DNA of 25,564 nucleotides, taken from an uncultured Dehalococcoidia bacterium (GTDB taxonomy: Bacteria; Chloroflexota; Dehalococcoidia; SZUA-161; SpSt-899). Every line of letters starts with the position of its first letter. Positions within the stretch are counted from its first letter, which is position 1. The stretch is taken from positions 1 through 25,564 of the forward strand of contig CAZDMY010000001.1 of assembly GCA_964506405.1 (NCBI GenBank). Direction: 5' to 3'. The translations under genes and the position numbers were made by a program. The notes beneath the pieces were generated by a model. It did not search any database and was not told the origin of the DNA. It saw only the letters and a list, made by a program, of their open reading frames with translations. Of this stretch, positions 1,984 to 13,413 are shown piece after piece.

Positions 1984-4900
1984 CTATAAAGGAACCTCAA
2001 CCAGAATCCTGGTCCCTTGCCGAGTCTGAGACTCAACAGAGAAAGTCCCACCCAGTATCTCTGCTCTTTCCCTCATGGAAACGAAGCCAAAACCCTTCAT
2101 GGGGCCTTTATCGAACTGCCCTTCGGGATAGCTGATTCCTTTTCCATTGTCTTCTATTTCGAGAAATATGGATTCACGCGTAAATTCAACCCGTACAGTA
2201 GCCCGTGTCGCTTTAGCGTGTTTGACGATGTTAGTTGTTGCTTCCTGTATGATCCTGAATAGCGCCGTCTCCATTTGTGGCTCGAGTTTCTTAGCTCGTC
2301 CTTTTGTTTCAAAACGGGCTTTTATTCCAGCTCTTCCCAGGTATTCCTCCGCCTGCCAGCGCGCCGCCGCTACAAGCCCCAGATCATCCAGCATGGTCGG
2401 TCGAAGCTCATAAATAATATTTCGTACGTCAACGAGCATGCTGGTAAGCGATGCGCGTACCTGCTTCAAGTTCGATTTGACCTGATCGAAGCCCCAGGGC
2501 AGGGAAGCGACTGAAGCTTCGATCATGGCCGATGCACCGGTTAATACTTGACTGGTCTGATCATGGAGTTCTCGGGCAATACGCCTCCGTTCCTCTTCCT
2601 GCATCAGAATGGACTGGCGCAATCCCTCCCGGCGTACCTGACCTTCATGATGGATCTTTTCGTAGAGTAATGAGTTCTCAACAACGGTACTGATTTGAAG
2701 GCCGATAGTGATTAGTAAATCCTGTTCCACTCTGGTGAGTTCTCGCTCCGGCCCCGAGATAACAGTCAGCACACCGAGTATCTCCCCCTTTGCTTTTAGC
2801 GGCACAAACATCGCTGATCCCAGCGGTACCCCTTCGATAACTTTGACGATATGCTTCTTGATATTATCCCTGACATCTTCCAGTGATGCCACAAATCTGG
2901 GTTCACCAGTTCGTACCACCTGCCCTAAAAGGCTATCCGTCAAATCAAATCCCTGCAGCAGGTGAACATATTTATTTGGGATACCTCGATATACCCTGAG
3001 ATTGGCATGAGATTCATCCTCCAATAGTAACACGAAGCATTGTTTTATGGAGAAAAGCTCGATTATCTTATCGAGAGTGTTATTTAAGACATCGTTCAAA
3101 TTCAGCGAGGATGTCAAGGTTTGTGCGATGGCATTAAGCGTGGTAAGCTCCAGGTTTCGCTGCAGGAGTTGTTTCTCTGTTTGTTTTCGTTCAGAAATAT
3201 CCCGCGTAACACCGATTATTCCGATCGGCCGTTTTGCTTCGTCTCGCAGAAAACGCATTGTTATTTCAACCCAGATTGTATGGCCATCTCTATGGCGCGT
3301 CTCTACTTCAACCGTCCGTGTTCGGGATAAATCAACACCGGGCTCATTTTCCCGCTCGATTTCTTCCGCGAGGATTTCTGTCACGATCCTGTATGAATCG
3401 GGGGCCAGGTTTTCCTCCGGTCTTCTGGTCAGAGCTTCTTTCACGGTGTATCCCTGCATCTCGGTAATCGACGGGCTGATATACGTATACCGAAGGTGCA
3501 TATCCATCGTCCAGATCACATCAGTAACGTTTTCTGCGAGTAACCGATACAATCGAACGCTTTCTTCCAGCGCATCCTCGGCCTCTTTTCGTTTAGTGAT
3601 ATCGCGGATAACGACCAGAATCCCTTGTGTTCCCTGACTTAGCGTGAGCAAGCTTGGCCTGGTATCGGCAATAATGTTACCACCGTTTCGATGGTGGATT
3701 ACAATCTCAATCGATTGGGGTGGAACGCCTTTCGTAACCGTTTCATTCAGTGTACGTTCGACATCGGGAAGCGATTCTTCACTCAACAGCCCTGTTTCTG
3801 AAAATCTCTTTCCGATCATTTCCTCTGGGTCATGGCCACAAAGGTCCATTAACCTGGAATTGACATCAATAATCGTTCCTGTCATATCGACGTAGACAAT
3901 GGTATCTGTAACGTTTTCAAATATTGAGCGGAACCTTTCCTCGCTGTCAATCAAGGCTTGCTGGGCAATTTGACGATCAGTGATATCCTCAATAATACCA
4001 TCGAAGTAGAGGATGTCCCCCTCATCCCCCTTGACTGCCACGGCGGTAACCGAACAGATGATAGGCGTTCCGTCTTTCTTCTTCAATATCACGAGCTCGT
4101 TATTTATCGATCCCCGGGTCTGAAGTTTCCGGCTCAGTTCGGTTCTATCTTCAGGATCTACATAAAGGTCCGAAACATTGATTTCCAGGAATTCCTCCTT
4201 ACTATCATATCCGAACATCTTGTAATGGAACGGATTGATTTCGAGGAATTTCCCCTCATCGCCCGGAGTGTTTCGATAAACCCCCACCGCCAGATTATTG
4301 GTCAGCGTCTTGTATTTTTCTTCACTCTCGATTAAGGCCATTTCGGCCAGCTTTTGAGCGGTAATATCAGTCACAATCCCGGTGATACCAACGATATCAC
4401 CGCCCTTAACCATCTTCCGGCTGGAAGTACGCACAAACCGAATCCGGTTATTACAATCCACAATTCTAAACTCATGAGGTTCATACTGGCCTCGCAATGT
4501 TTGTTCGTAACTGGTAACCAGCCCCGGCAAATCCCCGGGCATAACAAATTCGGTGAAGTGCTTGAACAGGACATCCTCAACACGGTAACCCCAGATGCTT
4601 TCGATAACCGGGCTGGCATAGGTAAAATATCCCTGGGTATCGAGTGAGAAAATGACGTCATTGATATTCTCGACCAGCGATCGGTATTTCTCCTCCGATT
4701 CTTTCACTGCCATCTCCGCCTGCTTGCGTTCGGTGATATCACGAACCAGGTTGATGGAGCCGATTGGCGTGCCTGCGCTGTCGTATATCAGCGAAGCGCT
4801 TGCTTCGACATCGAATTCCTCCCCGTTCCGTCTAATAAAACGGTATTCACAGGGCTTGCTGAATCCATTTTTCAGTAACTCTTCTACTTGTAGATTCACC

Positions 4901-5985
4901 CTATCTCGATCGCTTTCACTAATGAATTGAAATCCGTTCACGCCTATCAGTTCTTCCTTCGACGAGTAGCCGCCCATACGAACAGCAGCTTCATTCAAGT
5001 CGATGGTATTCCCTTCGAGGTCGGTCAATGATATCCCGTCCTGTATGGCTTCAAACATGGCTCGTAACTTTTCTTCACTGGCACGCAAGGCTTCCTCTTT
5101 GCGTTTTCTATCGGTGATATCGCGGGCGATCATGACAAGCGTTACGATTTTCCCATCCCTGGTGATGGGGCCAAATCGCGTTTCCAGAGTATATGTTTGT
5201 TTGTCGGGGAAGATTACTTCGGTCTCAATAATTTCGAATAATCCGGCATTGAACGTATTAAAGGCTGCACTCTTGAATCGATCATGGTCCCGGGGTGAGA
5301 TATAATCCAGCACATTGGACCCAATCGCTTCTTTGATTGTATGCCCGGGTGCTGGCTGGTTGGCAAATAGAATGGTAAAATCCCTGTCAAACTCAACAAT
5401 GTAATCCGGCGAGTTCTCCAAAATCGATGTGGACCGCTCTTCGCTTTCCCGTAGCGCCTGCTCTACACGTTCTCTTTCCTCGATTTGATCTTGCAGCAAT
5501 TCGGTTCTCTCCAGGACCATGACCTCGAGGTTTTCCCGGTATCTATCCAGTTCATCCTCTATTTCCTTCTTTTCAGTGCAGTCATGAGATACAATCTGTA
5601 TTGCGAATATATCTCCTGACGTATCCTTAACCGGATAGAAATGAGATACAAACCACCTGTCACCTTCAGGAAGGTTAATACGGTCCTCAAACTGGTCCCC
5701 TTGCCCCTTTTTCAGGACATGTTTGATCCGTTCGTCGGTGATATCCGCCAAATCCGGTAATATTTCACGAAGGCATTTGCTTATAAATGATTCCGGTGTT
5801 CCGCCTAGATTATGAGCACCGATCTTGTTGATCAACAATACATACCCATCAAGAGTCAGGTAGGTAATAGGAATCTGAGTATTATCCACCAGGACGCGGT
5901 AGCGTTCTTCGCTGGCGATCACATGCTGGCGCATGCGCGTCAACTCTTTTGCCAGCTCGGCACGGGTTTTGTTTTGGTGATCCAT
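1984..5985 (-). CDS. Cytoplasmic sensor histidine kinase: about 7 PAS/PAC + GAF + HisKA_3 + HATPase_c
   Basis: Seven PAC-type linkers (DCTEKK, DITDRK, DITERK, DITAQK, DITDRQ, DITKRK, DISERK); H-box RRIARELHD; N-box QEATTNIVKHA; G1 EDNGKG; no obvious TM segment. Confidence 0.95.
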   Translation of the reverse strand: MDHQNKTRAELAKELTRMRQHVIASEERYRVLVDNTQIPITYLTLDGYVLLINKIGAHNLGGTPESFISKCLREILPDLADITDERIKHVLKKGQGDQFEDRINLPEGDRWFVSHFYPVKDTSGDIFAIQIVSHDCTEKKEIEDELDRYRENLEVMVLERTELLQDQIEERERVEQALRESEERSTSILENSPDYIVEFDRDFTILFANQPAPGHTIKEAIGSNVLDYISPRDHDRFKSAAFNTFNAGLFEIIETEVIFPDKQTYTLETRFGPITRDGKIVTLVMIARDITDRKRKEEALRASEEKLRAMFEAIQDGISLTDLEGNTIDLNEAAVRMGGYSSKEELIGVNGFQFISESDRDRVNLQVEELLKNGFSKPCEYRFIRRNGEEFDVEASASLIYDSAGTPIGSINLVRDITERKQAEMAVKESEEKYRSLVENINDVIFSLDTQGYFTYASPVIESIWGYRVEDVLFKHFTEFVMPGDLPGLVTSYEQTLRGQYEPHEFRIVDCNNRIRFVRTSSRKMVKGGDIVGITGIVTDITAQKLAEMALIESEEKYKTLTNNLAVGVYRNTPGDEGKFLEINPFHYKMFGYDSKEEFLEINVSDLYVDPEDRTELSRKLQTRGSINNELVILKKKDGTPIICSVTAVAVKGDEGDILYFDGIIEDITDRQIAQQALIDSEERFRSIFENVTDTIVYVDMTGTIIDVNSRLMDLCGHDPEEMIGKRFSETGLLSEESLPDVERTLNETVTKGVPPQSIEIVIHHRNGGNIIADTRPSLLTLSQGTQGILVVIRDITKRKEAEDALEESVRLYRLLAENVTDVIWTMDMHLRYTYISPSITEMQGYTVKEALTRRPEENLAPDSYRIVTEILAEEIERENEPGVDLSRTRTVEVETRHRDGHTIWVEITMRFLRDEAKRPIGIIGVTRDISERKQTEKQLLQRNLELTTLNAIAQTLTSSLNLNDVLNNTLDKIIELFSIKQCFVLLLEDESHANLRVYRGIPNKYVHLLQGFDLTDSLLGQVVRTGEPRFVASLEDVRDNIKKHIVKVIEGVPLGSAMFVPLKAKGEILGVLTVISGPERELTRVEQDLLITIGLQISTVVENSLLYEKIHHEGQVRREGLRQSILMQEEERRRIARELHDQTSQVLTGASAMIEASVASLPWGFDQVKSNLKQVRASLTSMLVDVRNIIYELRPTMLDDLGLVAAARWQAEEYLGRAGIKARFETKGRAKKLEPQMETALFRIIQEATTNIVKHAKATRATVRVEFTRESIFLEIEDNGKGISYPEGQFDKGPMKGFGFVSMRERAEILGGTFSVESQTRQGTRILVEVPL

Positions 5986-6080: not shown

Positions 6081-8450
6081 TTAACTTGCTTGCTCTTTGA
6101 CCACCTGGGAGAGGTCCAGACGGCTTGCGTTGCGTAAACCCGGTATCTGTGAAAGTAAAACGACGAGAACGACAATCCCGGCAGTGAGTGCGTAAGTTGA
6201 GGGAAAGATGATAAGATCCATCGAGAACATATCACCCTGGAACAAACTGAAAAAGTAAACGGCCAGTCCGTATCCCAGAATAATACCGGGGATTAATCCT
6301 GCCAACCCGAGAATGAGGTTTTCAATAGTGATCATCCCGGCAATACGGCTGTTCCCTTCTCCCAACGTGCGCATGGTAGCGATCTCACGGCGACGCTCCA
6401 GGATATTCACGGTCACGGTGGTAAATACAATCGATCCTGAAAGCGTTGCACCAAAAAGTAACATGATCCACAACATTGCTGTACCCGATTCCATCATGGT
6501 TTCAATCTGTTCATGAGATTCGGAAGACAGTTCCACGGAAGCTGCCCCGGCCTTGAAAGCGTTATCTCGAATATCGTCTTCATATTCTTGATCAACTGAG
6601 AGTAATATCCCGTTTAGTATGTTGTCGTTCAGTAGAGACCGGACCGTCTCGATATCGACATACCCGAAGTTACCCATAGGGTCTTTTATGAACCCTTGTA
6701 TCACCATCGGCATACGAACAGATCCTGATGGCATCTGTACCATGACGGAAATTGTCTCACCTGCGGAAACATCAAGGGTATCGCCCAGGGATTCGGTAAG
6801 CATAATCCCCGTTTTACTAACTGAAACCGAATCACGCGAAGGTGAATACAAACCCCTTAGTTCACTATTTTCCGGAAGGGCGGTTAGAAGCGTGGTGTAG
6901 CTGGCTCCCTGGTATGACAATTTGGCCGGAGCCTCCAGAATGGGCTCAGCTTTTTTCACGCCTTCCCAATCTTGAAATTCATTCAATAAGTTATCGGAGC
7001 GGGGCTCGGCAAAAAGAATCTTTACGTCGTATCGCTGGATTTTATTGAACTGCAGGTCGATCATATCCTTCATGGAGTCGATCATTCCGGCCGATACCAG
7101 AATAAGGCTTATTCCCAAAATTACCCCAATAACAGTGTAAAGGCTTCGCCTGCCATTGCGAAAGATGTTCCGCAAAGGAATCTTCCAGAGTGAGGACATT
7201 TTGCTGATAAACGGGAATATGCGCTCCAGCAGAAGCCGTCGGCCCGCTGCCGGCGCAGGTGTTCGCATGGCCTCAGCCGGAAGTATACGGGAGGCCCTCC
7301 ATGCCGGCATCAAACCCGCGATTGCACAGGGAAGAACACCGAGCATGATGCCGGTCCCTATGGAAGTCCAATGGCTCTGGGTGGTAGTGAATGGCAGATT
7401 GATCAGCGAAGCATAAAACTCGGTCAACAATTCGGAAAGGAAATAACCGGTGATGATCCCGGCAATCGAACCCAGAATGCCTATCCCCAGAGAGAAGCCC
7501 AGATAGTGAGTCATAACCCTTCTCCGTGAATAGCCAACGGCACGCATCAATCCGATTTGATTCCTCTGGTTGTAGACGATTCGAGTGAGTAGAATATAGA
7601 TTGCCATCGCACCTACAATAACGAACAGAGCCGGAAACATCTGCGCCATAGTCTGAAACTGCTCCAAATCCATCTCCAGTCCGGCATAGCTTGGGACATC
7701 TTCCTTCATAACGATATCCAATATCTTGTTTTCCAGTGATTGTTCAATTTGCGGGCGAACGTCCTCGAGTTCGGTGCCTTTCTCAAGTAAGAAACAGTAT
7801 TCATTGATGGGTTCATTCAGTAAACCGGCTCTTATTTGTTCTGGAACGAAAACAACTCCCCACACCTCAGGAGAAACCAGTAATTCCTGACGGCTTTTGG
7901 CATAGAAAATGTACTCCGGACTGGTGGCAATTCCCACTACTTCAAAAATGGTTTCTTCACCCTTAAGGTTCAGCAAAACCGTATCGTCGGGTTCGATTGC
8001 ATGGTGCTGGGCAAAATGCTTTTCCAGTATGATTGAACGTTCATCGTTTTCGCTGAAGAAGTGCCCGTCTTCAACATGAATATCGTTAACGGTATCCGAT
8101 TCGGAATTTGAAGCAGAGGGTAGGGATAGTGTTCGTACCAGGACATTTTTCCTTCGATCGCCGGGCAGTGTAAGAGAGTAATCGGCATTCATTCTACCCG
8201 TAACAGCCTTTATTCCCGGGATGGATTCAAGGTCTGCTTCGACATCGCCAACCTCGTCCGATAACTGGATGGTGAAATCAGCGAAATTGAGTCTATCATA
8301 TGAATAATCGTATGAACCATTCAGGTTTTCATAGGCCATAAACATGATGCCGAAGAAAGTCACTGCCAGGAAGATGACAATCGTGACGGCGACAAACAGG
8401 CCTTTAGATGAACCGAAATCTCGAATCAGTTTGCGGTCCAGTTTGTTCAT
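6081..8450 (-). CDS. ABC transporter permease, duplicated MacB/FtsX-type
   Basis: Two MacB_PCD+FtsX halves, each with the conserved motif (QRNQIGLMRAVGYS; ERRREIATMRTLG). Confidence 0.92.
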   Translation of the reverse strand: MNKLDRKLIRDFGSSKGLFVAVTIVIFLAVTFFGIMFMAYENLNGSYDYSYDRLNFADFTIQLSDEVGDVEADLESIPGIKAVTGRMNADYSLTLPGDRRKNVLVRTLSLPSASNSESDTVNDIHVEDGHFFSENDERSIILEKHFAQHHAIEPDDTVLLNLKGEETIFEVVGIATSPEYIFYAKSRQELLVSPEVWGVVFVPEQIRAGLLNEPINEYCFLLEKGTELEDVRPQIEQSLENKILDIVMKEDVPSYAGLEMDLEQFQTMAQMFPALFVIVGAMAIYILLTRIVYNQRNQIGLMRAVGYSRRRVMTHYLGFSLGIGILGSIAGIITGYFLSELLTEFYASLINLPFTTTQSHWTSIGTGIMLGVLPCAIAGLMPAWRASRILPAEAMRTPAPAAGRRLLLERIFPFISKMSSLWKIPLRNIFRNGRRSLYTVIGVILGISLILVSAGMIDSMKDMIDLQFNKIQRYDVKILFAEPRSDNLLNEFQDWEGVKKAEPILEAPAKLSYQGASYTTLLTALPENSELRGLYSPSRDSVSVSKTGIMLTESLGDTLDVSAGETISVMVQMPSGSVRMPMVIQGFIKDPMGNFGYVDIETVRSLLNDNILNGILLSVDQEYEDDIRDNAFKAGAASVELSSESHEQIETMMESGTAMLWIMLLFGATLSGSIVFTTVTVNILERRREIATMRTLGEGNSRIAGMITIENLILGLAGLIPGIILGYGLAVYFFSLFQGDMFSMDLIIFPSTYALTAGIVVLVVLLSQIPGLRNASRLDLSQVVKEQAS

Positions 8451-8453
8451 GCT

Positions 8454-9161
8454 CTACCACCTGAGCTCACGAGGATCCACTGGCGTATCCACCTGCTGGA
8501 TATCGCTGATTTCGCCGCTCCTCATGCGCACGATCCGGTCGGCCATATCTCCAATGGCCGTGTTATGGGTCACGAGAAGAACCGTTTTTTTTCGCTCCTG
8601 GTTGATGTTTCGCATGGCGGCCAGTATGAGTTTGCCTGTATCGAAATCGAGATCTCCCGTCGGTTCATCTGCCAGGATAATTGGAGGATCTTTGACCATG
8701 GCTCGAGCAATGGCCACCCTTTGCTGTTCTCCACCGGAAAGCTCGCTGGGGAAATGATCGGCTCGACCACCTAAACCGACAATTTCCAGAACCTCTGCCG
8801 CACCTCGAGGGTTTTTGACAAGTTCACCAGCAAATTCAACGTTCTCCCGAGCAGTCAGCGAGGGAATCAAATTAAAAAACTGAAAAATAAACCCGATATG
8901 CTCACGGCGATACCTGGTTAATCCTTTCTCATTGAGCTTGCTGATATTGAGACCATCGGATATTATGGTGCCGGATGTGGGTGAATCCATTCCCCCCACA
9001 AGGTTCAAGAGTGTGGTCTTGCCTGAGCCACTGGGACCCAGTATCACGATAAATTCCCCTTTCTGAATGGTCAATGAAACATTTGATAATGCATTAACCT
9101 CGACTTGCCCCATCCGGTAAATGCGAGAGACGTTGTCCATTTGGAGTAACGGTTCTGCCAT
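8454..9161 (-). CDS. ABC transporter ATP-binding protein (LolD/MacB family)
   Basis: Walker A GPSGSGKT, signature LSGGEQQ, Walker B ILADEPT, H-loop VTH. ATG at 9161 chosen (SD GGGGGA) over the TTG at 9164. Confidence 0.96.
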   Translation of the reverse strand: MAEPLLQMDNVSRIYRMGQVEVNALSNVSLTIQKGEFIVILGPSGSGKTTLLNLVGGMDSPTSGTIISDGLNISKLNEKGLTRYRREHIGFIFQFFNLIPSLTARENVEFAGELVKNPRGAAEVLEIVGLGGRADHFPSELSGGEQQRVAIARAMVKDPPIILADEPTGDLDFDTGKLILAAMRNINQERKKTVLLVTHNTAIGDMADRIVRMRSGEISDIQQVDTPVDPRELRW

Positions 9162-9182
9162 CAAATTCCCCCACGTATCGAT

Positions 9183-9863
9183 TTAGTTACCGACGAATGC
9201 AAGTAATATATCCTTTCCAACGATACCGATGCTCCTTTCGGGTGCCCTTAGTATTCTTTCAACAGTTGTTTCCAGAGCAGTGTATTTTTGCTCCAGCCTG
9301 TTGAAAACGCTGTCACTCGATTTCTCATTCAGTATGATCAGGGCGGAACTCTCACCTACACTGGAAACGAGCATCATGATTTGTTCGGCTGTCTCGTGAG
9401 GATCACGTATGTCAAACACACCTTCGGTCGAACCCTGTTCAAGAACAAGTTCAAGTTTTGGGATGATAATCTCCATGGCACGACGTGTCATTTTTTGTCG
9501 AAGCAGCGTATTCTCGGGCTTATATATTATTTGAATCAACATTTGAACGAATGCCTTGTTTTCCATTTTCAGGGTTGCTACCTCAGCGAAGTATTGATTA
9601 AACTTTTCCAGTCCGTTAAGAGAGCTATTATTCATGATCCTGTTCAAGGTGGCGTCAATATCACTAGTGAACCTTTCCACAAGCTGGTCCAGAAGATCCT
9701 CTTTGGATTTGAAGTAATGATAGAATGTGCCTTTGGCGATACCGGCGGCTTCGATTATCTCCGATACAGGTGTTGCTCCATATCCCTTTTCCGAGAATAA
9801 ACTTTGCGCAGTATCAATCAGTTCATTTCTGCGCACTTCGTGTGGTTTTATGACTCTTTTCAT
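9183..9863 (-). CDS. TetR/AcrR family transcriptional regulator
   Basis: N-terminal HTH RNELIDTAQSLFSEKGY...AGIAKGTFYHYFKSKEDLL; SD GGAG. Confidence 0.96.
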   Translation of the reverse strand: MKRVIKPHEVRRNELIDTAQSLFSEKGYGATPVSEIIEAAGIAKGTFYHYFKSKEDLLDQLVERFTSDIDATLNRIMNNSSLNGLEKFNQYFAEVATLKMENKAFVQMLIQIIYKPENTLLRQKMTRRAMEIIIPKLELVLEQGSTEGVFDIRDPHETAEQIMMLVSSVGESSALIILNEKSSDSVFNRLEQKYTALETTVERILRAPERSIGIVGKDILLAFVGN

Positions 9864-9892: not shown

Positions 9893-9973
9893 TTACAGAA
9901 GGACTCTTTGATACTCAGTCCCTATGGGCTCACACACCGCTGACACAAAAATTCCGGTTGCTGGTTCAAGCAT
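9893..9973 (-). CDS. Possible 26-aa small ORF or leader peptide (MLEPATGIFVSAVCEPIGTEYQRVLL)
   Basis: ATG at 9971-9973 with AGGAG about 10 nt upstream; stop at 9893; lies between the operator and tetR. Confidence 0.25.
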   Translation of the reverse strand: MLEPATGIFVSAVCEPIGTEYQRVLL

Positions 9974-10023
9974 TATAGCCGGTCTCCTGAAATAAATCGA
10001 CAAATTCATAGTCAACCGAGCAT

Positions 10024-10052
10024 TATAATAGACCGACCGTCGGTCTATTATA
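10024..10052. promoter_or_regulatory. Putative TetR operator: perfect 29-bp palindrome TATAATAGACCGAC-C-GTCGGTCTATTATA
   Basis: 14-bp arms with 1-bp spacer, immediately downstream of the predicted -10 of the tetR-ABC promoter. Confidence 0.85.
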
Positions 10053-10080
10053 TGGTAAGCTTTTTGTCTCTTACCGTCAA
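10052..10080 (-). promoter_or_regulatory. Sigma70-type promoter for tetR-ABC (TTGACG-N17-TACCAT)
   Basis: -35 at 10075-10080, 17-nt spacer, -10 at 10052-10057. Confidence 0.6.
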
Positions 10081-10164
10081 CGAAAAAGCAGATTTTAAGG
10101 AATTGCCTGGAAATAGTTGTGACGGGGATCAGATCAGGAAGTTGAATGCAACAGAAGGGCGATA

Positions 10165-10911
10165 TCAAGCTTCAGTCCATTCGATTACCTCGCTACACCA
10201 GACATCTGAAATTGTGGCCGTCACAGCAGACCTGTTTGGTCTTCTCACATTAAGTATCCGATCCACGACATACGGATCGAATCTCTGCAGGAATGTACAC
10301 TGTTTGCGAAAACCGGCGATCGTATTTCGCTCACCGCCGTAGAACAGGTAATCCATGTCTCGTATATGGGGTTCCAGCTTCTCTCTCACGTGCTGGCAAA
10401 CCCGGGTAAAAAACATTTCTATCTGCTTCTCGCGGTGACGTTCAAATCGGCGCTGCGATGAACCTCCCTTCTTGTGCCTGGAATGCACCAGACCGGTTCC
10501 ATGCTTGTGGTCAAGAAAGGTTTCTCCCCGGAAGGTGGCGACAGCGTACTGGCCAAGTCGAATCAGAACAAGGCTGATGAGTGCCTCCTGTCGAAGCATA
10601 TCCTGTATCGGCGCAGTGTGAATATCGGGATGATACGCACCTGCTATTACGGGGAACGGTGGTATAAGGCAGCATTTATACTGCGTGCCCCAGAAGAGCA
10701 CTGCGCCGGTTTTCGATGCGGTGACAGACCGTAGCACTTCCGCGATAACATCCGATTCTTGCACTTGTTTTCTAATCAGGTCCTCTCTATCACCGGAAGT
10801 CGCCCCTGTGACATAGTATCCGGTGGTACATTCTTGCGAGGACGATTCGATTTCATCCAGCAAGCCCAGGGTACGAGCTCTGGTAAGTCTGCGCTGAATT
10901 GAGGTATACAT
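10165..10911 (-). CDS. Vms1/ANKZF1-like release factor (acVLRF1 family, putative peptidyl-tRNA hydrolase)
   Basis: LVLIRLGQYAVATFRG...SRHKKGGSSQRRFERHREKQ...LFYGGE matches the aeRF1-superfamily VLRF1 core with the GGxSQ catalytic-loop Gln (codons 10453-10467). Confidence 0.85.
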   Translation of the reverse strand: MYTSIQRRLTRARTLGLLDEIESSSQECTTGYYVTGATSGDREDLIRKQVQESDVIAEVLRSVTASKTGAVLFWGTQYKCCLIPPFPVIAGAYHPDIHTAPIQDMLRQEALISLVLIRLGQYAVATFRGETFLDHKHGTGLVHSRHKKGGSSQRRFERHREKQIEMFFTRVCQHVREKLEPHIRDMDYLFYGGERNTIAGFRKQCTFLQRFDPYVVDRILNVRRPNRSAVTATISDVWCSEVIEWTEA

Positions 10912-10954
10912 CGTTAGTTAATGGGAAGGTAATATAGCGGCAGTTTGCAGAGCG

Positions 10955-13315
10955 CTATAGTTTAACAAGGGTGACACCGTCTCCCCCCTCGTAGTCTTTA
11001 CCACTTCGAAAGGACCGAACCAGCGGATGGGAGGCCAGCATGTCCCGGACGATCTGCCGCACTGTTCCGGTCCCGTATCCATGTATGACGCGAACCTCAT
11101 CGAAACCAGCGATGGAAACATCGTTCAGGTAAGTATCCAGTTCCGGTTCAACCTCATCGGCGCGACGACCTCGTAGATCAAGCTCCAGTGAGCGATACGG
11201 CTTATCCCCGGAGGGTTGGTAAGTATGTTTGCGTGCAAGAGGGGAGGTGTCAGAGGAGGTCTTCTGCAAGTCCGCGGCTGAGACTTTGAACCTGGATTTT
11301 CCGGCGTGAACCTCAACTTCACCCGTTTTTTCAAATATAGCAGCGACGGTTCCACGGATATTAGTATCGATCACTTTCACCGCATCTCCGGTGGATAGTT
11401 CCTGCAATTCAGTAATTATATCATCCGGTTCGGGATCGACCTGAGGAATTTGCCATTCTTTTGAAGAAAGCTCCTCCTTGACAGCCTCAATCGCAGATTT
11501 GGCCTGTTCGATCCGCTCCTTCGATTTCGATTTCCTGAGCGCAGAAGCGGCCTTCTGGATCTGCTTTTGTAAAGCCGCCGCTTCATGGATGATCCGTTCC
11601 TTTTCCGAGCGAATGACGCTTTGCTTCGTCTCCTCCAGGTTTTTCAGTTCGATTTCGATCTGTTGCCTGGCTTGCTCTGCGGCACGTTTTTCTTGTTCCA
11701 GTTCTGTCCGTAACGAACGAGTAGCCTCTTTTTCCCCGGATATTTCGTTAACCAGATCATCCAGTTCGGTCACGCCTTTCGGTAATATCGCCTTGGCACG
11801 CTCGATAATATTCAGAGGCAATCCCAAGTGTGCTGCAATCGCCAGTGCGTTACTTCCGCCGGGAACTCCCATGAGCATGTGGTATGTCGGCGAAAGCGTC
11901 ACCGGATCGAATTCCATAGAGGCATTACTCAATCCCGGCGTTTTATAAGCAAAGGCCTTGAGCTCGGCGAAATGTGTCGTTGCCGCCATGAGTGTTCGCT
12001 TCTCCACAAAATGCAGCATGATCGATTGTGCCAGCGCGGCACCCTCAGCAGGGTCTGTGCTGGTACCCAGTTCATCCAGCAGCACCAGGCTGTTACTGGT
12101 GGCCATCTCCACAACACGCACGATGTTTCCCATATGCCAACTGAAACTGGATAAGGTCTCTTCGATGCTTTGCTCATCCCCCATATCGGCAAAAATATTA
12201 TCGAAAACAGGGATACTGCTTTCGCCGGAGGCTGGGATCGGCAGCCCTGATTGTGTCATGAGCGTCAGCAGGCCGATTGTTTTAAGCGAAACGGTTTTAC
12301 CTCCGGTATTCGGTCCGGTGATTACCAGCCCCGTATACCCAGCCCCGATCTGAACGGAAATAGGCACTGCCTTTTCCTTGAGCAACGGATGGCGAGCTTC
12401 CTTCAGCAGAATCACCGGATCTTCTTCCGGTGGCGCGATACGAGCTTCCACCGCCTGATAATCACGGGCAAATCTACCCTTAGCCAGGGCCAGGTCAAGT
12501 TCCGCCAAAAGGTTAGTATTGCTGATGATATCGTCGCTGTATTCGGCGATATCTTCACTTAACACACTGAGAATTCGCAGTATCTCCTGCTCCTCATCAG
12601 TGACCAGTTGACGCAACCGGTTGCCAAGCTCAACTGTAGCCATCGGCTCGACAAACACTGTTGCCTCAGTATTGGACACATCATGAATAATGCCTTTCAT
12701 CCGACCCTGGAAATCGATCTTAACGGGAATAACATATCGGCCGGCCCGTTCGGTGATAAAATCATCCTGGATCATTACTCGAGTGTCTTCGTTCCGAATA
12801 ATACGTTCGAGCCGGGTGATAATTTGACGTCGTGTCTCCTTGAGCTCATTCCTGATAGCTCCCAGTTCAGCTGAGGCAGTATCCAGTACCTCACCCGAGG
12901 GATCTATGCAACGTTCGATCTCGTCCGCCAGTTGTGGAAGAGAAACCAGTTGGGCGGCCACTTCCCAGAGAGAAGGCAGCATAGCGAGGTGTTCCCTGAA
13001 TACCGTCTGTAGTAAATCTGAAGCAATGAGTATGGAACGGATATCCAGAAGTGATTTAGGGTCCAGCACCTTACCGATTGTTGTCATGTGAACGGTTTGC
13101 CGCGAATCCGCCGGTTGCCCCAGGCTGAGATTGGGCTCAAGTGCGAGCAGTTGACGTGCCTCAGTTGATTGTTTGAGAAGCTGTTTTACCGTATCGTGGA
13201 AAATCTGCGGTTCGATCGAAAGGGCCAGATCATAGCTAACCGAGAAGGTGGTATATGCGGCCAGAATTCTTTTCAGTTTGGGCAGTTCGAGAACTTCGAG
13301 GCTTTTTTGGTCCAT
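10955..13315 (-). CDS. mutS2: MutS2 (MutS ATPase + coiled coil + KOW + Smr)
   Basis: Walker A GPNTGGKT, LLDELGTSTDP, ATTHFAELK, KOW-like GDAVKV...GTV, Smr ELDLRG...IHGYGTG...GGDGVT; no MutS1 mismatch-binding domain. Start at 13315 (MDQKSLEVLE) preferred over 13330. Confidence 0.96.
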   Translation of the reverse strand: MDQKSLEVLELPKLKRILAAYTTFSVSYDLALSIEPQIFHDTVKQLLKQSTEARQLLALEPNLSLGQPADSRQTVHMTTIGKVLDPKSLLDIRSILIASDLLQTVFREHLAMLPSLWEVAAQLVSLPQLADEIERCIDPSGEVLDTASAELGAIRNELKETRRQIITRLERIIRNEDTRVMIQDDFITERAGRYVIPVKIDFQGRMKGIIHDVSNTEATVFVEPMATVELGNRLRQLVTDEEQEILRILSVLSEDIAEYSDDIISNTNLLAELDLALAKGRFARDYQAVEARIAPPEEDPVILLKEARHPLLKEKAVPISVQIGAGYTGLVITGPNTGGKTVSLKTIGLLTLMTQSGLPIPASGESSIPVFDNIFADMGDEQSIEETLSSFSWHMGNIVRVVEMATSNSLVLLDELGTSTDPAEGAALAQSIMLHFVEKRTLMAATTHFAELKAFAYKTPGLSNASMEFDPVTLSPTYHMLMGVPGGSNALAIAAHLGLPLNIIERAKAILPKGVTELDDLVNEISGEKEATRSLRTELEQEKRAAEQARQQIEIELKNLEETKQSVIRSEKERIIHEAAALQKQIQKAASALRKSKSKERIEQAKSAIEAVKEELSSKEWQIPQVDPEPDDIITELQELSTGDAVKVIDTNIRGTVAAIFEKTGEVEVHAGKSRFKVSAADLQKTSSDTSPLARKHTYQPSGDKPYRSLELDLRGRRADEVEPELDTYLNDVSIAGFDEVRVIHGYGTGTVRQIVRDMLASHPLVRSFRSGKDYEGGDGVTLVKL

Positions 13316-13413
13316 ACTTTCATATACCATTGTACGTAGTAATTACTGAAATTTCTACATTTGCGGGGTAATGGAGCGCATTAAGTCCTTTTTCCATACC
13401 AGGTCAACAGCCA

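Follow-up and report, generated by a model that had tools for sequence, protein, structure and literature searches.

The window analysed here is the whole 25,564-nucleotide (nt) stretch of contig CAZDMY010000001.1 (assembly GCA_964506405.1), which originates from a sediment Dehalococcoidia bacterium of the phylum Chloroflexota. Its minus strand carries, in order, mutS2, a spacer of 43 nt and a gene of the acVLRF1 family, as read from the open reading frames (ORFs) of the window (Table 1). The stop codon of mutS2 (TAG) is located at 10955–10957 and the ATG of the acVLRF1 gene at 10909–10911, and a consensus scan revealed no terminator-like or promoter-like site within 10912–10954. An original prediction, made from the letters of this stretch, had described a same-strand gap of 43 nt without a visible terminator, and both the coordinates and the site scan agreed with that description. 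The pair had the layout of a two-gene operon: one strand, a short spacer, no terminator-like site and a conserved adjacency. The sequencing runs containing the locus were DNA metagenomes only (sediment, seawater), and no RNA runs were listed among them.

A sigma-70-like promoter match was located ahead of mutS2, with its −10 hexamer overlapping the first ATG. Since this promoter-like hexamer ends at 13329 and MutS2 orthologues begin to align only at residue 5–6, the true start is probably the Met at 13315, the coordinate at which the original prediction had placed the end of mutS2.

Table 1. Positions and supporting evidence of the features of the mutS2–acVLRF1 locus (aa, amino acids)
Feature	Position	Strand	Basis
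mutS2 (ribosome-collision ATPase MutS2/RqcU) ORF	10955..13330	-	791 aa from ATG at 13330; TIGR01069, 805.3 bits
Sigma-70-like promoter match TAGAAA-17-TACAAT ahead of mutS2	13329..13357	-	Consensus scan, 9/12; consensus match only
Walker A GPNTGGKT of the MutS2 ABC-type ATPase, aa 339–346	12293..12316	-	Alignment of 33 orthologues
MSSS (KOW-like SH3) domain of MutS2, aa 648–688	11267..11389	-	PF20297, 26.9 bits (cut-off 26.8)
Smr domain of MutS2, aa 717–791; DLR instead of DxH, plus HGxG	10958..11182	-	PF01713, 76.9 bits
Intergenic spacer mutS2/acVLRF1, 43 nt	10912..10954	-	Sequence read
acVLRF1-family gene, 248 aa; two-domain, aRF1-derived, release-factor-like	10165..10911	-	PF18859, 94.1 bits; AlphaFold2 model; fold matches
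Core of the release-factor M domain, aa 112–242	10186..10578	-	acVLRF1 profile
GGSSQ loop, aa 149–153, at the position of the eRF1 GGQ loop	10453..10467	-	Sequence and alignment
IS200-like gene copies (outside the window)	L044:2545-3135, L036:1723-2292, L033:647-1216, L047:1217-1852; L192:2332-2784	+ (first four); - (L192)	

The MutS2 protein

The identification of the upstream gene as mutS2, already part of the original prediction, was corroborated by a TIGR01069 match far above the equivalog cut-off (805.3 versus 400 bits) and by the presence of PF00488 (MutS_V), PF20297 (MSSS, an SH3 domain) and PF01713 (Smr). Among 33 aligned MutS2 orthologues, seven of the eight residues of the Walker A motif were invariant and the eighth was nearly invariant, while the Walker B motif LLDE (aa 417–420) was invariant or nearly so. 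In the Smr domain, L719, R720, H750 and G751 were invariant and D718 nearly invariant across the same orthologues. The DxH nuclease motif of the SmrB type was not found in this domain, where DLR stands in its place and HGxG is kept. MutS2/RqcU of Bacillus subtilis shares this architecture (ATPase, KOW-like domain, Smr domain with DLR and HGxG), and binds and splits collided ribosomes without cutting mRNA (Park et al., PMC10897456). By analogy, the Smr domain of the MutS2 encoded in the window is probably non-cleaving.

Family, fold and kinship of the acVLRF1 protein

The original prediction called for a match to a VLRF1 profile, and the downstream protein matched PF18859 (acVLRF1) with 94.1 bits against a gathering cut-off of 27.1, with aa 112–242 covering profile positions 3–129 of 130. 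A six-frame search with the same profile gave 95.4 bits for the gene. The match to NCBIfam NF041024 reached 92.5 bits, below the curated cut-off of 125. Weaker Pfam matches were obtained with baeRF_family10, eRF1_2 and aRF1_eRF1, and close relatives carry the NCBI product name 'Vms1/Ankzf1 family peptidyl-tRNA hydrolase'. None of the accessory domains of Vms1/ANKZF1 (Rei1-type zinc finger, ankyrin repeats, VIM) was detected in the 248 aa, the only Pfam matches being of release-factor type.

An AlphaFold2 model built on an alignment of 70 sequences was confident (mean predicted local distance difference test score, pLDDT, 93.1). When the model was compared with known structures using Foldseek, ranks 1–19 were archaeal aRF1 or eukaryotic eRF1 (best E about 1e-11), followed by Balon (8v9j, E 5e-7; 8rdv) and then Pelota, with yeast Vms1 (6r84_R) only in 29th place (E 7e-5). 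When all PDB sequences were searched by profile, aRF1 was retrieved with an E value of 3.6e-21, and Vms1 was not found at E ≤ 1. By profile and by modelled fold, the protein is nearer to archaeal aRF1 and eRF1 than to Vms1. The 'VLRF1 core' of the original prediction was therefore correct as to the Pfam family matched, but that label is a family name and does not reflect the closest kinship. The placement of acVLRF1 in the 'Vms1-like' or VLRF-1 clade rests on the phylogeny in PMC6514570.

The profile alignment with aRF1 (3agk) spans the N-like and M domains, with the N domain reduced relative to aRF1, and ends near aRF1 residue 270, before the C domain. The aRF1 segment with the NIKS-type codon-reading motif falls in a gap. 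Because both this segment and the C domain are missing, the alignment points to a stripped-down relative of aRF1 that is predicted to be unable to read a stop codon or to bind a GTPase partner. In aRF1 and eRF1, which are about 370–440 aa long, a GG loop likewise precedes a long helix, but the loop reads GGQ rather than GGSSQ. Loss of the stop-codon element and the C domain, combined with a GGxSQ loop, is characteristic of the acVLRF-1 family (Burroughs and Aravind 2019, PMC6514570; PF18859; NF041024). The window protein resembles that family in all of these features, in its Pfam match, in its short N-terminal part and in its Chloroflexota host. It differs in belonging to a sub-clade tied to mutS2 and in scoring below the NF041024 cut-off.

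The GGSSQ loop

The loop of the acVLRF1 protein in the window reads HSRHKKGGSSQRRF and contains the canonical GGSSQ. Among 70 acVLRF1 sequences, G149, G150, S152 and R155 were invariant, and F156, H143, R145 and H146 were nearly invariant. The Gln position (Q153) was more variable: the 70 linked loci encoded Gln in 44 cases, Ala in 19, Ser in five, and Glu and Gly in one each. Where Ala or Ser occupied this position, the next residue was His, Asn or Gln in 19 of 24 sequences. As Gln is missing in 26 of the 70 linked orthologues, a strictly Gln-dependent hydrolysis cannot, judging from the alignment, be the mechanism of the whole orthologous group. The loop expected at this locus was thus present, but its Gln, which had been put forward as the residue to mutate, is not conserved.

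The current description of Vms1/ANKZF1 is that of a tRNA endonuclease which takes off the CCA end (PMC11317155). A chemistry based on His and Arg, comparable to that of Vms1/ANKZF1, would be a live alternative to ester hydrolysis. Because a third of the orthologues lack the Gln, we rate hydrolysis of the ester bond and cutting of the tRNA 3′ end by acVLRF1 as about equally likely.

Conservation of the gene pair

One genome per species was scanned for relatives of the acVLRF1 locus. This yielded 217 relatives, of which the best 80 were examined; five of these were too near a contig end, leaving 75 informative loci of other species. Among these best-matching loci, mutS2 was located directly upstream on the same strand in 61 of 75, a proportion biased upward by a query set built mostly from linked genes. 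Spacers in the 61 linked loci were mostly 4–120 nt. Since the query came mainly from linked genes, an unbiased sample of the class was drawn, in which 123 of 401 genomes carried acVLRF1 (the tally includes the unpublished G602, which was not used further). All 11 genomes of the window's own family in this sample encoded the protein. The unbiased set consisted of 100 of these class loci and 20 from a phylum sample, 120 acVLRF1 loci altogether, and mutS2 was nearby in 45 of them, with 75 unlinked.

In a maximum-likelihood tree, 44 of the 45 mutS2-linked acVLRF1 sequences were placed in one clade (SH-aLRT support, a Shimodaira–Hasegawa-like approximate likelihood-ratio test, 98). This clade had 48 members from 16 GTDB families, and mutS2 was directly upstream in 44 of the 48; the four unlinked members look like secondary losses. 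No linkage to mutS2 was seen in the other acVLRF1 clades of the class, of which there are at least six. One genome on a long separate branch had the reversed order, acVLRF1 and then mutS2, with an IS200-like gene between them.

The flanking genes of the window (ABC transporter, Na+/H+ antiporter) were shared only with the two closest relatives, so the mutS2–acVLRF1 pair is maintained as a unit amid changing surroundings. The adjacency is not due to chance, as the pair was linked in 61 of the 75 informative loci and in 44 of the 48 clade members while the flanking genes differed. This excludes the original prediction's own counter-scenario, an adjacency unique to this genome. The synteny that it proposed to test across Chloroflexota belongs to one acVLRF1 clade inside Dehalococcoidia and not to the phylum or to the acVLRF1 family as a whole, with 75 of 120 loci unlinked. 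The linkage is ancient and strongly retained, yet essentially a single evolutionary event.

Eight distinct genomes had, immediately before acVLRF1 and on its strand, a gene for about 190 aa that weakly matched an IS200-like Y1 transposase (23–29 bits; Table 1). Its position is between mutS2 and acVLRF1 in most of these genomes and accounts for the spacers of 610–720 nt. One copy is frameshifted. Since the copies are mutually only 40–79% identical, the gene resembles a long-established resident, or one that has been domesticated, more than a recent insertion.

A second acVLRF1 clade, with the loop GG[RS]S[QE]KRF and 26–31% identity to the window protein, was never found beside mutS2. In two genomes its gene was located behind a rhomboid protease gene (L019:471-1136, L020:520-1131), and some genomes (G244, G388) carried both acVLRF1 types. 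No second consistent partner was found among the neighbours of unlinked acVLRF1 genes, which encoded GNAT, radical SAM, metallo-beta-lactamase, PALP enzyme, DEAD helicase, rhomboid and enolase-family proteins.

Co-occurrence with RqcH and other rescue genes

Of 401 Chloroflexota genomes, 187 contained RqcH, recognised by its NFACT_N domain. RqcH was detected in none of the 45 same-class genomes of the phylum sample, in none of the 20 that carry a true acVLRF1 and in none of five further class members bearing unlinked acVLRF1 clades; in all five of the latter, MutS2 was located elsewhere. The window's genome (88% complete, 529 contigs) gave a best NFACT_N match of 19.8 bits, which is below the threshold. 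At the same completeness no short ArfB was seen, while Pth, SmpB and class-I release factors were present. The co-occurrence check on rqcH, pth and arfB suggested in the original prediction thus gave a pattern that fits it, for all three genes in this genome and for rqcH also across the phylum, the class and the acVLRF1-bearing genomes, although the pattern has exceptions.

Two genomes of family f27 (G224, locus L003; G083, locus L004) encoded acVLRF1 proteins of 144–156 bits with the loop GGWSQ. Other Chloroflexota classes (e.g. G016, G028, G073, G126 and G171) gave weaker PF18859 matches of 27–60 bits in ORFs of 370–530 aa. These ORFs probably belong to other bacterial families of the aeRF1 superfamily and, unlike true acVLRF1, co-occur with RqcH.

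A proposed split-then-release module

The starting points for an interpretation are the observed identities of the two genes and their operon-like layout, the retention of the pair across a clade, the fold and conserved loop of acVLRF1, and the phyletic pattern of RqcH. We propose, with moderate confidence, that mutS2 and acVLRF1 form a two-gene operon for successive rescue steps in a lineage without RqcH, in which MutS2 would split the ribosome and acVLRF1 would then release the chain. We infer every biochemical step of this module. MutS2 would recognise collided ribosomes via its KOW-like and Smr domains, and its ABC-type ATPase would drive the splitting of the stalled ribosome, from which a 50S subunit with peptidyl-tRNA would remain; this splitting role is assigned here because of what is described for MutS2 of B. 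subtilis. acVLRF1 may then enter the vacated A site of the 50S–peptidyl-tRNA complex, which would bring the conserved, basic GG-x-S-x-x-RF loop of the protein into the peptidyl-transferase centre. Two ways in which acVLRF1 could detach the nascent chain there are proposed: hydrolysis of the ester bond, or a cut at the tRNA 3′ end like that made by Vms1/ANKZF1.

Vms1/ANKZF1, the eukaryotic VLRF-1, releases nascent chains from 60S–peptidyl-tRNA after splitting. It has the superfamily fold and a loop of the Gly-x-small-Gln type in common with acVLRF1, and its place in the pathway, after a dedicated splitter and without codon reading, is the one proposed here for acVLRF1. The zinc-finger, ankyrin and VIM parts of Vms1/ANKZF1 are missing from acVLRF1, and the upstream partner of Vms1/ANKZF1 is the RQT complex instead of MutS2. 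In the eukaryotic route, tailing of the RqcH/Rqc2 type precedes release, whereas tailing is apparently absent here. The ribosome quality control (RQC) pathway of B. subtilis (MutS2/RqcU, RqcH, RqcP/YlmH and Pth; PMC11317155, PMC10897456) has Pth in common with the window's genome. It differs in using RqcH, which was found neither in that genome nor in any of the same-class genomes searched, whereas here a release-factor-like gene stands beside mutS2.

A more specific form of the proposal, which we advance only tentatively, is that acVLRF1 serves in RqcH-less Dehalococcoidia as the dedicated termination factor of a minimal RQC. It would free the untagged chain from the 50S–peptidyl-tRNA made by MutS2 and so skip Ala-tailing. 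Release in this case may be a Gln-independent, Vms1-like cut at the tRNA 3′ end that uses the conserved His/Arg loop.

Several observations weigh against split-then-release by the pair. The Gln is absent in 26 of the 70 linked orthologues. The Pth encoded in the window's genome could take care of release, which is the role of Pth in B. subtilis. Of the 29 same-class genomes with MutS2, 15 had neither acVLRF1 nor RqcH, so an acVLRF1 partner is not a requirement for MutS2. Conversely, acVLRF1 was present without MutS2 in four genomes (G224 and G083 of family f27, G308 and G364). In the two f27 genomes neither MutS2 nor RqcH was found, the best MutS matches being at the level of MutS1, and since these genomes carry acVLRF1 the protein can work without MutS2. 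The linked genomes descend from one ancient event and are not independent replicates. Finally, co-transcription of the pair, binding to the 50S subunit and catalysis are predictions from sequence. A complex prediction with MutS2 (aa 45–791) and acVLRF1 returned a score of 0.00, which for this tool is neither support for binding nor evidence against it.

Alternative roles for acVLRF1

The alternative that survives best, although we regard it as unlikely, places the action of acVLRF1 on the 70S lead ribosome, either ahead of splitting or while it takes place. acVLRF1 would bind the A site independently of the codon and either release the chain in the manner of ArfB or serve as a wedge for the ABC-type ATPase MutS2, the part that aRF1/Pelota plays for ABCE1. 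Its closest relatives, aRF1/eRF1, as well as Pelota, work on whole ribosomes together with an ABC ATPase, and MutS2 has been paralleled with ABCE1, and active with inactive members of the eRF1 family (PMC10897456). Orthologues lacking the Gln would suit a non-catalytic wedge. Against this, acVLRF1 lacks the C domain through which aRF1 and Pelota contact their partners and has a reduced N domain, and its GG-x-S-x-x-RF loop, in contrast to that of Pelota, is invariant. An interface between MutS2 and acVLRF1 was not predicted either, the score of 0.00 again being neutral in this respect.

Alternatively, acVLRF1 could be a non-catalytic hibernation or anti-association factor similar to Balon that sits in the A site or the peptidyl-transferase centre of particles which MutS2 has produced or sensed; we consider this quite unlikely. 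Balon, a bacterial aeRF1 homologue without catalytic activity, was among the fold matches (8v9j, E 5e-7; 8rdv), and the Ala, Ser, Glu or Gly that stands in place of the Gln in 26 of the 70 linked orthologues would be compatible with a loss of catalysis. Both Balon and Pelota/Dom34, the latter working with the ABC ATPase ABCE1, share the aeRF1 fold with acVLRF1 and bind the A site without releasing the peptide. They are three-domain proteins (about 360 aa in Balon), whereas acVLRF1 has two domains, and their loops lack the conserved GG-x-S-x-x-RF. In acVLRF1 the Gly-Gly-x-Ser loop and the flanking His and Arg residues are conserved like an active site, and the His, Asn or Gln that follows in 19 of 24 Gln-less variants suggests a kept function.

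Suppressing recombination is the older role assigned to MutS2, and the genes could be mere neighbours through an inherited accident, with MutS2 acting mainly on DNA or the two proteins in separate translation pathways, as might be expected from a linkage that traces to one clade, from the wide presence of each gene without the other and from the lack of a predicted interaction (score 0.00, neutral as above), but this is improbable given that 44 of 48 clade members in 16 families keep the pair amid reshuffled flanking genes, that the spacers are short and on the same strand, that a second gene order exists on another branch and that both families have ribosome-related homologues.

Other genes in the window

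A 91-aa ORF at 9893–10168 on the minus strand, with a TTG start and a 4-nt overlap with the acVLRF1 stop, was considered as a third gene of the operon and rejected: it had no Pfam or NCBIfam match and no counterpart in 80 related loci, which makes a real gene improbable. The region 6081–9863 (minus strand), immediately downstream of the pair, encodes a TetR-family regulator, a MacB/LolD-like ABC ATPase and a duplicated FtsX/MacB_PCD permease, a probable efflux operon. Its ABC-transporter gene pair recurs only in the closest relative (L032). A sensor histidine kinase of 1333 aa with six or seven PAS domains, GAF, HisKA_3 and HATPase_c is encoded at 1984–5985 (minus strand).

Significance

The acVLRF1 and MutS2 families are both known and named. 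No description of a mutS2–acVLRF1 pairing was found in the literature on acVLRF1, Vms1, MutS2 and eRF1: the paper defining acVLRF-1 (PMC6514570) mentions neither MutS nor Smr, and the MutS2 paper co-authored by Burroughs and Aravind (PMC10897456) does not mention the pairing. New here are the linkage confined to one clade, the complementary pattern of RqcH, the kinship with aRF1 over Vms1 and the loop statistics. According to reviews and primary papers in the field, no dedicated release factor of bacterial RQC is known, and in Bacillus release is performed by the housekeeping enzyme Pth (PMC11317155).

On sequence evidence, the mutS2–acVLRF1 pair is a well-supported candidate for a bacterial step dedicated to the release of incomplete proteins, and it offers a concrete candidate release factor for bacterial RQC that is open to genetics and biochemistry. 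The variable Gln poses a sharp mechanistic question, hydrolysis or tRNA cleavage. A lineage with the splitter and without the tailing enzyme is informative about the evolutionary assembly of rescue pathways, and the pair is relevant to whether bacteria have a counterpart of the eukaryotic order in which splitting is followed by release through an eRF1-like factor. If the proposal is true, these Dehalococcoidia would possess a bacterial split-and-release route that skips Ala-tailing altogether.

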